NCBI GenBank assembly: GCA_949746675.1 | Contig: CATKDT010000040.1 | Coordinates: 1-28,978, forward strand | From: an uncultured Clostridia bacterium | Lineage (GTDB): Bacteria > Bacillota > Clostridia > TANB77 > CAG-508 | Reading direction: 5' to 3' | DNA: 28,978 nucleotides | Shown: positions 2 through 3,240 of the stretch, piece by piece | Position numbering within the stretch: position 1 is the first letter of the stretch | Layout: each line of letters begins with the position of its first letter | Position numbers and translations under genes: made by a program | The notes under the pieces: model-generated | Databases searched by the model: none | What the model saw: the letters and a program-made list of their open reading frames with translations, nothing else | What the model was told of the DNA's origin: nothing

Positions 2-301
2 ATACCTAAACAAGAAAAAATCACTTTAAATAAATATGGAAGAATGAGATTAAAATATTTAAAAGAACACAAAAAAGCTGAATATACTATAATGCTTATG
101 AATGGAACTTTAAATGCACACTTAAAAGAATTACAAGAAACGGCAGATAATAGAGTTGAGCAGATTATCAACGAGTTAAAAGCAAAAAGCGACTTGACCG
201 AAGATATGAAAAATACAGATATGTTATATTGGGTTGGTACTATGAACTCTATTAAAGCTCAAGCTGAGGAAATCATTTTTAGCGAATTGATTTATATATA
301 A
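2..301 (+). CDS. tnpV: TnpV-family transposon-associated protein, 5'-truncated by the window edge
   Basis: The frame is open from base 2 (IPKQEKITLNKYGRMRLKYLKEH...), so the ATG at 44 is internal. The GRM..YL.EH, G.L..HL.E and W...MN.I...AEEII motifs match my recollection of TnpV from Tn4451-type clostridial elements. A hairpin terminator follows. Confidence 0.7.
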   Translation: MPKQEKITLNKYGRMRLKYLKEHKKAEYTIMLMNGTLNAHLKELQETADNRVEQIINELKAKSDLTEDMKNTDMLYWVGTMNSIKAQAEEIIFSELIYI

Positions 302-380: not shown

Positions 381-2324
381 TTATTCATTTTTTATAAATT
401 CCCAGTGATATCCTCCAGCTGTTTCTTTTTCATTTTTGCAACATTTGCTAATATTCTCGTTTGTGGTATGATAAAAGCGTGAAGCAGCAGAAAGGCTTTT
501 AAAAATTTCTCCAGTATCCATATTTTTTACTTTAATACCTCTATTTTCCCTTGCACATTTTGGACATCCTCTACCATTTTTGGCTCTATCTTGAATTAGT
601 GTGCTCCATGAATGACCACATTTGTTACAAATCCACCAGACTCTTCTGCCACTTCCACAAGTTATATCTGACGGTAAAAAATTATTTTTATTATAATCCC
701 ATTCTTTAGCTAAATTGGGACATAAAGTTTCTAAATCATTTTCTCCTCTAATAAGATTTTGAGAATATACTCTAGCAATTTTTAACATACAAACTTTTTC
801 TATAACATCATCATCTATTTTAATTTCTTTACTTATTTTTAGATATTTTAAAATTTGTGTAATAGCCTTTTCCATTTCTATAAAGAATAAATCCGTTTCT
901 TTTTTATCACTTGTTGTAGTAAGTTTTATATTTATATGTTTAGAAGATTTATGTTCAAAAGCCCCTTTCTCTAAAATTGTAATTACTTTATCTATTTCTT
1001 GTGCATTTCTGATTAATTCAAACTTCTTTTTGCTTCTATAGTTTTCTTCTTTATGCCAAACTACACCATCATACTCAATTCCTATTTTTTTTGATGGTAT
1101 CCACAAGTCAAGTTCCATGTTAGCATTGGTTTCTTTATTTTTTAACCAATCTGGTCTATAATTTTGAACAGTATCTGGATAAAATTCATGTAGAAAGTAA
1201 AATATTAATCTTTGTGGCATTGATGAAACATTCATAAGTGAAGGATTTAGTATACTCCTTGATTGAAATGAATGTCTTATTCTATGTCTAACAATTGTTC
1301 CATCTTCAAATTGTACTGAAATATCATCTGCTGAATTATCTTCAATGACTGTACATCTCATACCACATTTCATCAATTTTGTCTGTCCTAAAATACTATT
1401 TTTTTTAGAATAAGCATATCCTCTGCCTAAATCAGGATGGATTATAGAACCTTTAAAATAACTATCTCGAGAACAATTCTTTTTTATTTTTCCATCCTCA
1501 AACTGAACTGTTATTTTATTTTTTCCCATATCTTCTATAACTGTACAACGAAGTCCTGATTTCATAATTTTACTATTACCTTTAATGCTATTATTTATGA
1601 CTCTAGAAAAATTTTTACCTAACTTAGGGTTGGCTATAGATTTATTTTTGAAATAATCTCTTCTAATATGCTTTACAAGCGTACCATCTTCAAATTTAAC
1701 TGTAATATCTCTACTACTTTTATCTTCCACAACTGTACATCTCATACCACACCTCATTAGTGCTGATTGTCCAAGTACGCTTCCTTTTATAAAATTGGGA
1801 TTAGCAATTTTACCTTTATTAAAATTATATCTACTAGATTTCGTTATATAGCCATCCTCAAACTTAACAATTATATCATCTCGTCCATTATCTTCGATAA
1901 TTGTGCATTTCATGCCATTGGACATAACTTTACTTTTGCCTTGAATACTATATTTCCTAGAACAAGTATAGCCTCTCCTTAATGAAGGATTTGTTATTTT
2001 TCCACTAAAAAAATTATATCGTGTGCAGTTATTTTTTATAGTTCCATCTTCGAATTGTACTGATATGTTATCATAACCATTATCTTCTATAACAGTACAT
2101 TTCATTCCGTTAGACATAGTATTACTTTTGCCTTTTATACTAATTTTACGTTTTAAAGATGGATTTAAAATAGAACCTTTATTAAATCCTTGTCTAGTGC
2201 ATTTTTTTATAGTTCCATCTTCAAATTGTACAGCTATGTCATCATAACCATTATCCTTTATAACAGTACATTTCATCCCACAGTGCATCATTTTTGATTG
2301 ACCTATTATTGTTTTTTTTCGCAT
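381..2324 (-). CDS. Multidomain nuclease-like protein: six tandem ~56-64 aa repeats, a Vsr/DUF559-like PD-(D/E)xK core, a treble-clef zinc ribbon and a NUMOD1-like DNA-binding tail
   Basis: ATG at 2324 is preceded by GAGGT. The repeats span aa 8-363. The motif ELDLWIPSKKIGIEYDGVVWHK (aa 404-425) resembles the D...IEyDG..wH core of Vsr-like endonucleases. WDYNKNNFLPSDITCGSGRRVWWICNKCGHSWSTLIQDRAKNGRGCPKC resembles the DUF4379-type zinc ribbon. The C-terminal VKNMDTGEIFKSLSAASRFYHTTNENISKCCKNEKETAGGYHWEF resembles homing-endonuclease NUMOD/IENR modules. Confidence 0.65.
   Translation of the reverse strand: MRKKTIIGQSKMMHCGMKCTVIKDNGYDDIAVQFEDGTIKKCTRQGFNKGSILNPSLKRKISIKGKSNTMSNGMKCTVIEDNGYDNISVQFEDGTIKNNCTRYNFFSGKITNPSLRRGYTCSRKYSIQGKSKVMSNGMKCTIIEDNGRDDIIVKFEDGYITKSSRYNFNKGKIANPNFIKGSVLGQSALMRCGMRCTVVEDKSSRDITVKFEDGTLVKHIRRDYFKNKSIANPKLGKNFSRVINNSIKGNSKIMKSGLRCTVIEDMGKNKITVQFEDGKIKKNCSRDSYFKGSIIHPDLGRGYAYSKKNSILGQTKLMKCGMRCTVIEDNSADDISVQFEDGTIVRHRIRHSFQSRSILNPSLMNVSSMPQRLIFYFLHEFYPDTVQNYRPDWLKNKETNANMELDLWIPSKKIGIEYDGVVWHKEENYRSKKKFELIRNAQEIDKVITILEKGAFEHKSSKHINIKLTTTSDKKETDLFFIEMEKAITQILKYLKISKEIKIDDDVIEKVCMLKIARVYSQNLIRGENDLETLCPNLAKEWDYNKNNFLPSDITCGSGRRVWWICNKCGHSWSTLIQDRAKNGRGCPKCARENRGIKVKNMDTGEIFKSLSAASRFYHTTNENISKCCKNEKETAGGYHWEFIKNE
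1236..2303 (-). repeat. Six diverged in-frame tandem coding repeats (periods 57, 64, 56, 64 and 64 aa)
   Basis: Consensus G.S..M..GM+CTVIEDNG.D.I.VQFEDGTI.....R..F..G.I.NP.L starts at aa 8, 65, 129, 185, 249 and 313 of the 647-aa protein. Confidence 0.85.
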
Positions 2325-2344: not shown

Positions 2345-2776
2345 TTACTTTCTATTTTTATTTAATTCAATAAACTCTGTAAAGTTAGCATTTGAATACC
2401 TATCAGCATTATCTGAAATATTAATAACATATGATAAACTCATTTCACAAAATAATGATATCGTTAATAATATTTTTTCATTTACAGTTTGCATTTGAAA
2501 AAAATGTGAATTATTAAATTGTTTTTTTAGATAATCTATATTTTGTACTAATCTATCTTCATTAGGTAAATGATGTATCAAATTACATTCTTCAATATTA
2601 TTAGTATTAATTGCTTTTAGTATAGTTTTTCTTATTTTACATCCACATTTATCGTCATAATATGTATTACCTAATTTTAAATATGCATATTCATAAGCTA
2701 TTTTAAGTATTGCTAATTCAATTTCATTAAAATTAATTTCAAATTTATATGATATAGTTGGATGTGTAAATTCCAT
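2345..2776 (-). CDS. C-terminal part of a split HNH-family protein. The frame is open upstream to 2836.
   Basis: This 143-aa ORF ends 20 nt upstream of the 647-aa gene start. Its frame continues upstream as KKKINSNQKDKIIEQIKNTK-MEFTH, overlapping the end of the HNH ORF. No independent RBS is obvious. Confidence 0.5.
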   Translation of the reverse strand: MEFTHPTISYKFEINFNEIELAILKIAYEYAYLKLGNTYYDDKCGCKIRKTILKAINTNNIEECNLIHHLPNEDRLVQNIDYLKKQFNNSHFFQMQTVNEKILLTISLFCEMSLSYVINISDNADRYSNANFTEFIELNKNRK

Positions 2777-2823
2777 TTTAGTATTTTTAATTTGTTCAAT
2801 AATCTTATCTTTTTGATTACTAT

Positions 2824-3240
2824 TTATTTTTTTCTTTCATGATTTTTTTTGATTATTTCTATTGCTTTTTCCCTACTAGATGTTTTAATAGTATATATAT
2901 TATCTTTTTCATTAACTCTTGTTTCAATAGTTGGTTCAAAATTTTCATTTAATATTACATTATCACCATTTTCATCTATACCTTTTTTTAAAGGGAAAGG
3001 TATTTTTCCATTTTTTCCTGCAAGTTTATAACTATTTCTAAGTAGCTCCATAAAAAAACCTGTTGTGATATATCTATCTACTTTACTTCCTAGTTTGCTA
3101 TTACATTCTATACATAAATTATCAGTTTTTAAAATTTTATTTCCCAATGCTTCTGGTATAATATGTTCTATATTAAATTCATTATCCTCTTTATTTTTTC
3201 CACAAATTATACATCTTTTCATAGCATACCTAACTTTCAA
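2824..3240 (-). CDS. HNH endonuclease, N-terminal part. The likely real start is ATG at 3222.
   Basis: CIICGKNKEDNEFNIEHIIPEALGN...CIECNSKLGSKVD is a CxxC...EH...CxxCN HNH motif. The codon at 3240 is TTG. The ATG at 3222 (MKRCIICGK) has AGGT 5 nt upstream. The ORF ends in an A7 run. Confidence 0.75.
   Translation of the reverse strand: MKVRYAMKRCIICGKNKEDNEFNIEHIIPEALGNKILKTDNLCIECNSKLGSKVDRYITTGFFMELLRNSYKLAGKNGKIPFPLKKGIDENGDNVILNENFEPTIETRVNEKDNIYTIKTSSREKAIEIIKKNHERKK

Follow-up and report, generated by a model that had tools for sequence, protein, structure and literature searches.

A gut Clostridia gene for six tandem repeats, a Vsr-like nuclease core, a DUF4379 zinc finger and a helix-turn-helix tail: a candidate homing-type endonuclease

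Homing endonucleases that combine a repeated small domain with a nuclease have already been described (PMC10448857; PMC12350094; for Hef, PMC3239194). Barth et al. 2023 reported that T5orf172 homing endonucleases carry CapR/DUF723 zinc-finger DNA-binding domains that are repeated and exchangeable (PMC10448857), and CapR-type domains have been found by experiment to bind DNA sequence-specifically (PMC10448857; bioRxiv 10.64898/2026.02.23.707548). A 2025 paper described phage-intron proteins in which three to five CapR/DUF4379/DUF723-like domains of ~60 amino acids (aa) are followed by an EDxHD/Vsr-like nuclease (PMC12350094). The Hef-type enzymes were assigned to the EDxHD family by Taylor 2011, who identified D196 (Vsr D51) and D222 (Vsr D97) as metal ligands and H213 (Vsr H69) as the general base in I-Bth0305I, the prototype of that family (PDB 3r3p; PMC3239194). 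Here, we describe a gene of related design from an uncultured Clostridia bacterium (lineage TANB77; CAG-508). The gene lies on contig CATKDT010000040.1 of assembly GCA_949746675.1, of which the whole analyzed stretch of 28,978 nucleotides (nt), with a G+C content of ~27%, is called the window below. It is a single open reading frame (ORF) of 647 aa at positions 381-2324 on the minus strand, with an ATG start codon and a GAGG ribosome-binding site 8 nt 5' of it. The architecture of the encoded protein is R6-N-Z-T, where R is a repeat module, N the nuclease core, Z a DUF4379 zinc finger and T a helix-turn-helix tail.

As judged from its sequence, the nuclease core belongs to the EDxHD/Vsr-like (Hef-type) homing endonuclease lineage. 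It displays the motif ELDLWIP...IGIEYDGVVWH, and residues S368, P370, E404, D406, I416, E417, Y418, D419, H424, K434 and E452 are invariant in 27 diverse homologues. A first-pass annotation of this DNA had proposed a Vsr-like core with D406, E417, D419 and K425 as catalytic residues; conservation holds for D406, E417 and D419 but not for K425, the conserved positions next to it being H424 and K434. The assignment to a Vsr-like core was itself supported by a hidden Markov model (HMM) of the core, which matched I-Bth0305I (sequence of gp29 from phage 0305phi8-36, NC_009760) with E=1.5e-9 and 24 bits (hhalign 73%), and the Hef-like protein of Campylobacter phage CP30A with E=4.6e-11. In the alignment to I-Bth0305I, D406 corresponds to D196, E417 to E206, D419 to N208, H424 to H213, K434 to K223 and E452 to E241. 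The spacing from D to H in the core is 18 residues, as reported for Vsr (PMC3239194). A tblastn search against phage genomes aligned aa 21-458 to the CP30A Hef-like homing endonuclease and its relatives. The weak Pfam matches of the core all fall in the PD-(D/E)XK clan, namely MTES_1575 (10 of the 27 members), DUF559, Vsr, DUF2726 and PDDEXK_3. We also built an AlphaFold2 (AF2) model of aa 364-647 from 32 aligned homologues, with a mean predicted local distance difference test score (pLDDT) of 92, and used this whole model as the Foldseek query. The core gave weak matches, the better-ranked of which included Vsr itself and other nucleases of the PD-(D/E)XK type, such as the Vsr-like AbaSI and PvuRts1I.

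The N-terminal half is occupied by six tandem R repeats of 56-64 aa, anchored at C19, C76, C140, C196, C260 and C324 with periods of 57, 64, 56, 64 and 64 aa. An R profile made from the repeats of other proteins found six stretches in the 647-aa protein (E=2.8e-140 in a search of 1.84 billion proteins), which is far beyond chance and agrees with the six repeats recognized at first pass. Pairwise identity between the repeats is 42-66% at the protein level. Compared as DNA, with spacings of 171, 192, 168, 192 and 192 nt, the copies share no more than 64-77% identity with the first one, and the repeats must therefore be old; Tandem Repeats Finder did not report them. A recent expansion was rejected on the same DNA identities and because each repeat position has its own orthologues. 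In most comparisons with close homologues, each position best matches its own orthologue, with identities of 63-85% in the closest homologue and 55-85% over all eight that were compared. Shorter homologues mostly retain the nuclease-proximal repeats without the distal ones, as do P0011 (R4-R6) and P0010 (R3-R6). An exception is P0012, the repeats of which best match R2, R1 and R6.

We searched for known domains related to R. No Pfam or NCBIfam match was obtained above noise, the faint ones being Tudor_3, DUF6763 and Plk4_PB2, and the R profile had no match in PDB sequences. Searches of PDB sequences with the full-length protein, with profiles of the core and of R, and with the Hef core returned only a DUF4379 match and noise. 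Several PHROG families contain R, and the tie between the repeat and phage homing endonucleases proposed at first pass was borne out by PHROG 559/3339 and by the Campylobacter phage Hef-like enzymes. Comparison with the zinc repeat of the CP30A Hef protein using hhalign gave 92% and E=6.5e-7 for R, and 70% and E=4e-5 for Z. In this alignment R has F, T and N opposite the Hef zinc ligands C, H and C, and R is thus regarded as zinc-free; the cysteines inside R vary across the family (800 repeats aligned). We infer that R descends from the CapR/DUF4379-type finger, which occupies the same positions in relatives, and has lost the zinc.

An AF2 model of the array (aa 1-366; mean pLDDT 83) predicts each R unit to comprise four strands and a short helix. 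The predicted template modelling score (pTM) is 0.34, the three longer linkers have pLDDT <50 and the domains appear independent, so that the model predicts beads on a flexible string. A superhelical solenoid of the TALE or PUF kind, which the first-pass annotation had suggested, was rejected because of the low pTM and the disordered linkers. Searching the BFVD database of predicted viral structures with the array model using Foldseek gave two unnamed or uncharacterized phage proteins as the strongest matches. The named matches are CapR-homology, treble-clef, zinc-ribbon and Campylobacter phage homing-endonuclease proteins (E from 3e-9 to 1e-7), with global template modelling (TM) scores that are low because the R domains are flexibly linked. 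Matches of the six-repeat model in the PDB, to beta-propellers and Spt5 at TM ~0.1, were set aside as artefacts that arise when many small beta-units in a row are aligned. The three long linkers, at aa 113-125, 234-245 and 298-309 (nt ~1950-1988, 1590-1625 and 1398-1433), have a common motif, L(G/R)(R/K)(G/N)(Y/F)..S+, as in LRRGYTCSRKY, LGKNFSRVINN and LGRGYAYSKKN. This motif recurs family-wide, is modelled as disordered and might contact DNA.

The array is strongly basic, with an isoelectric point of 9.8 and 67 K+R versus 34 D+E. Among the 800 aligned repeats, structural positions are near-invariant, and the variable ones cluster in strand 4 and the helix, beside conserved R/K residues. By analogy, this pattern fits sequence-specific reading of nucleic acid. 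Recognition of a long nucleic-acid target by the array would be plausible, since it agrees with the published DNA binding of CapR-type domains. A bolder extension is that the arrays are zinc-independent, position-specific DNA readers in which each ~56-aa module would read a fixed short stretch through the variable residues of strand 4 and the helix. In that case, arrays of 3-14 modules flanking a Vsr-like cutter on either side would set very long targets and module swaps would re-target the enzyme, a natural scaffold comparable to TALE and zinc-finger nucleases. We consider this extension a long shot.

Downstream of the core, Pfam found a single domain in the 647-aa protein, DUF4379 at aa 538-592 (E=9.4e-21; 74.2 bits against a cut-off of 24.5). 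The zinc ligands read from the sequence are the cysteines C566/C569/C587/C590 (CxxC...CxxC). This part matches chain 6sga_Fd, the DUF4379 protein of the trypanosome mitoribosome assemblosome, both by sequence (E=8e-9) and by fold (Foldseek). The zinc element foreseen at first pass is therefore present, although it is more precisely a treble clef than the ribbon proposed. The tail resembles an I-HmuI/NUMOD-like helix-turn-helix, in line with the NUMOD-like tail proposed earlier. Foldseek matched the last 50 residues to 8b6e_A, a DNA-binding sCTP helix-turn-helix protein (TM score TMt 0.82; E=0.011), and to I-HmuI (1u3e_M; E=0.029), and PHROG 20162 'HNH endonuclease' was matched with E=0.017. 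The tail (aa 597-647) has no Pfam match in the 647-aa protein itself; PF22083 (I-HmuI NUMOD-like) is recorded on the close homologues P0003 and P0012.

The closest described relative in overall design is the Hef-like enzyme of Campylobacter phage CP30A (AFR52366.1, with Fletchervirus homologues), which likewise has an N-terminal tandem array before the same nuclease core. Its array comprises nine repeats of ~52 aa with a C..H..CxxC pattern that retain the zinc site and match Pfam DUF4379 (E=7.2e-13), whereas R of the 647-aa protein is zinc-free. It carries a different C-terminal domain instead of Z and T, and is encoded by a phage gene rather than by a bacterial mobile-element gene. After its core, ~150 residues (aa ~590-744; gene at 2485-4719 of contig L001) have no match in the R/core family and no Pfam match above threshold. 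Hef of the T-even phage U5 is grouped with the CP30A type by annotation. I-Bth0305I (PMC3239194) has a homologous catalytic domain, with the equivalents of its D196, E206, H213, K223 and E241 invariant in the R/core family, and likewise joins a modular DNA-binding region, with a footprint of ~60 bp, to a Vsr-like nuclease. It differs in having two N-terminal NUMOD2 helix-turn-helix motifs, without beta-rich repeats or a zinc finger, in its size of 266 aa and in its location within a group I intron in recA. The four phage-intron proteins of the 2025 paper, compared by description, follow the same plan of several ~60-aa domains plus a Vsr-like nuclease and have thousands of unannotated relatives; they carry zinc-type domains and a C-terminal nuclease, as opposed to six zinc-free copies and an internal nuclease (PMC12350094). 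The T5orf172 endonucleases, together with the domesticated repressor CapR, also place repeated, exchangeable small DNA-binding modules on a homing nuclease, in numbers that vary between alleles (PMC10448857), but their nuclease is GIY-YIG-like, from another family than the Vsr-like one, and their modules bind zinc. As far as could be found, the zinc-free R, its abundance in gut bacteria, a nuclease placed between long arrays and the mixed R-N-Z-T form are apparently undescribed in the literature.

The architecture, initially regarded as unusual, turned out to be widespread. R arrays are present in 109 of the 120 best homologues, nearly all of which share the same core, and the R profile retrieved 2,990 clusters at 50% identity (1,908 with E<=1e-10); homing endonucleases of this type have moreover been published. 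The family is common and recognized in the literature; of the refuting outcome named at first pass, a common and already characterized family, this bears out one half. The 120 best homologues are mostly unnamed, the rest being labelled "hypothetical protein" apart from one evident misannotation. The 647-aa protein and those most closely related to it have the arrangement R3-6-N-Z-T; many others are of an R-N-R type, such as R5-N-R6, and repeat counts in relatives reach 14. Among 130 new representatives, 38 are R-N-R and 69 are R only, the latter possibly being fragments. R and Z arrays interchange around the same core. Where R does not stand by itself, its companions are the nuclease core, DUF4379 fingers and the helix-turn-helix tail, with no other recognizable domain seen alongside. 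Genome contigs were scanned for the core using a six-sequence core alignment; the genomes carrying it span several phyla, and almost every one comes from an animal-gut sample. Versions flanked by Z are spread over many bacterial phyla, and the R-carrying clusters that were traced are from animal-gut bacteria.

Several relatives have left footprints at their insertion sites. On the two sides of P0013 (Muribaculaceae; R5-N-R6), the 3' half of a comM/yifB-type Mg-chelatase gene is present in diverged copies (L015/L016 5052-5774 and 8527-9248), which are 75% identical over 729 nt. An Rfam search around this comM-flanked gene found no intron, and P0013 may represent an insertion of the nuclease alone, bringing with it a substitute copy of its own target. 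In three unrelated gut metagenome-assembled genomes, a Z-type gene and one small unknown ORF (~3 kb together) directly follow an intact secA. After each insertion the 3' end of secA occurs once more, as its last 44-52 nt (SEC-C motif); on contig L058 the duplication, 96% identical, continues past the stop codon into the 3' untranslated region. Direct repeats were also observed with two further Z-type relatives: one of 208 nt on L050 (2994-3201 and 5990-6196), starting in the 3' end of a tRNA-Ser gene, and one of 51 nt on L046 (2870-2918 and 5914-5964), with a terminator-like hairpin. The secA and comM footprints look like small site-specific insertions that duplicate their own target, which fits homing-type mobility.

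We favor, with moderate confidence, the reading that the 647-aa protein belongs to the EDxHD/Vsr-like (Hef-type) lineage and is a site-specific DNA endonuclease of the homing type, free-standing and equipped with modular DNA-binding arms. The central PD-(D/E)XK/Vsr-fold domain would cut DNA, with D406 and E417 binding metal and H424 acting as the general base. Three kinds of module would grip an extended DNA target on either side of the cut: the six basic R modules on their flexible linkers would bind the target N-terminal to the core, and the DUF4379 finger and the I-HmuI-like helix-turn-helix tail would bind it C-terminal to the core. Alleles without the gene would be cut, and recombinational repair might then spread or retain the gene with its flanks. 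Several results weigh against this reading. For the 647-aa gene itself, we found neither flanking direct repeats nor a duplicated target site nor an empty site. The residue opposite I-Bth0305I D222, the fifth EDxHD position, is K433 and is variable among R-type members. The Foldseek matches of the aa 364-647 model to AbaSI, PvuRts1I, BamHI, Bax1 and Vsr (1vsr) are weak (E of 0.04-1.3), and neither 3r3p nor 1vsr was recovered by profile searches of PDB sequences. In IMG/VR, narrow search patterns returned only eight distant relatives. Finally, R and Z (DUF4379) gave no match when compared directly using hhalign, and R has lost the zinc ligands of the Hef repeat, for which reasons DNA binding by R stands on analogy. 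The lack of conservation at the D222 position in R-type members can be taken to suggest a domesticated homing-endonuclease relative, which would act mainly as a sequence-specific DNA-binding regulator, like CapR/CasPR, and would cleave DNA little if at all. Co-option of CapR-type arrays as repressors has been described (PMC10448857; bioRxiv 10.64898/2026.02.23.707548), and 69 of the 130 library representatives are R only. We nevertheless find such a regulator improbable: short metagenomic contigs may have yielded the R-only entries as fragments, and the invariance of E404, D406, E417, D419, H424, K434 and E452 in the 27 diverse cores argues for retained catalysis.

The main rival is a stand-alone nuclease of defence or inter-element conflict, in which the arrays would recognize invading phage or plasmid DNA, or modified DNA, and the core would destroy it, the gene being cargo of an island or mobile element instead of propagating itself. 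Vsr-like enzymes such as AbaSI and PvuRts1I are indeed restriction enzymes, and some relatives are found in suggestive company. P0010 (R4-N-Z-T; L007 6090-14168) is embedded in a type I restriction-modification locus, with an N6_Mtase gene on one side and an HTH_3/HsdR pair on the other, near YobI-ATPase, FRG, DUF2971 and integrase genes; P0004 lies beside a serine recombinase and a large helicase, and P0068 in a conjugative-element-like block. These defence-island and mobile-element contexts are equally compatible with a defence role and count in its favor, as does the HNH_5 nuclease gene that precedes the 647-aa gene. However, PADLOC (PADLOC-DB 2.0) returned no match for the 647-aa protein or for three neighboring genes (one from its own locus and two from loci of relatives), homologues have no conserved partner gene, the nearest characterized or named relatives are homing endonucleases, and relatives have left homing-like insertion footprints in secA and comM. 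A defence role appears unlikely to us. It is very improbable that the R repeats instead bind something other than DNA in a multivalent way, be it RNA, a phage protein or cell-wall material, as Tudor/SH3/KOW-like beta barrels do. The faint Pfam matches to Tudor_3, eIF-1a and Myosin_N SH3-like domains and the Spt5 KOW arrays among the Foldseek PDB matches point in that direction, but they are far below threshold or have TM ~0.1, whereas the significant profile and fold links lead to CapR/DUF4379-type nuclease fingers. The company that R keeps, namely the nuclease core, DUF4379 fingers and helix-turn-helix tail when it is not alone, also argues against such a binder, as do the lack of a signal peptide and the strongly basic array. 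The earlier suggestion that the repeats bind a phage component found no support.

The features of the locus and the secA copies are listed in Table 1. An identical protein is encoded on mouse-gut contigs. One flank of the gene contains housekeeping genes (SUF, DHH, transglycosylase) and the HNH_5 nuclease gene, which ends 20 nt before the 647-aa ORF; the two nucleases may be connected. In the window the HNH_5 gene has lost 1 nt from a poly-A run at ~2826-2833 (A7; A8 on contig L005), which breaks it into two ORFs of 138 aa (with HNH_5) and 143 aa, while the rest of the 950-nt stretch around the break is identical to L005. This break could reflect phase variation or gene decay, or have arisen in the assembly. 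A 72-aa RusA fragment is also present on the housekeeping side (L002). The other flank extends beyond the left edge of the window and is seen on the longer contig L002, where positions 12024-20838 carry two TnpV, two Mob_Pre relaxase and two large serine recombinase genes, apparently from one or two Tn4451-like mobilisable elements. The TnpV fragment at 44..301 of the window marks the edge of this mobilisable-transposon region, which is seen whole on L002.

Table 1. Features of the 647-aa protein gene and its surroundings, and copies of the secA 3' end next to relatives. Positions refer to the window unless a contig is named.
Feature	Position	Strand	Remarks
Whole ORF, 647 aa, R6-N-Z-T	381..2324	-	stop codon 381-383
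Repeat R1, aa 5-60	2145..2312	-	AF2 strands 10-42, helix 44-49
Repeat R2, aa 62-117	1974..2141	-	repeat mapping, AF2, identity comparison
Repeat R3, aa 126-181	1782..1949	-	repeat mapping, AF2, identity comparison
Repeat R4, aa 182-237	1614..1781	-	repeat mapping, AF2, identity comparison
Repeat R5, aa 246-301	1422..1589	-	repeat mapping, AF2, identity comparison
Repeat R6, aa 310-365	1230..1397	-	adjoins nuclease; most conserved repeat among close homologues
EDxHD/Vsr-like nuclease core (assigned by sequence), aa 366-530	735..1229	-	invariant E404, D406, E417, D419, H424, K434, E452
DUF4379 treble-clef zinc finger, aa 531-596	537..734	-	C566, C569, C587, C590
C-terminal helix-turn-helix tail, I-HmuI/NUMOD-like, aa 597-647	384..536	-	
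HNH_5 endonuclease gene, upstream neighbor	2345..3240	-	292 aa when intact
TnpV fragment	44..301	+	convergent with 647-aa ORF
secA 3'-end copies	L058 2848-2899 and 6009-6060		
secA 3'-end copies	L038 2674-2717 and 5625-5668		
secA 3'-end copies	L036 2655-2698 and 6643-6686		

These results provide a name and a likely function for ~3,000 clusters of "hypothetical proteins" from gut bacteria. They suggest that curated libraries overlook a derivative of the CapR/DUF4379 finger of homing endonucleases that does without zinc. Beyond phage introns, the recently noticed EDxHD/Vsr-like outgroup of homing endonucleases would extend to the chromosomes and mobile elements of bacteria, among them Bacillota, Bacteroidota and further phyla. 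The arrays could be of interest to protein engineers if DNA is read predictably by each repeat, which is speculative. The gene belongs to a large, barely annotated family that has only lately entered the literature, and for genome annotation the outcome is modest, a selfish or conflict-related nuclease gene and no new system.

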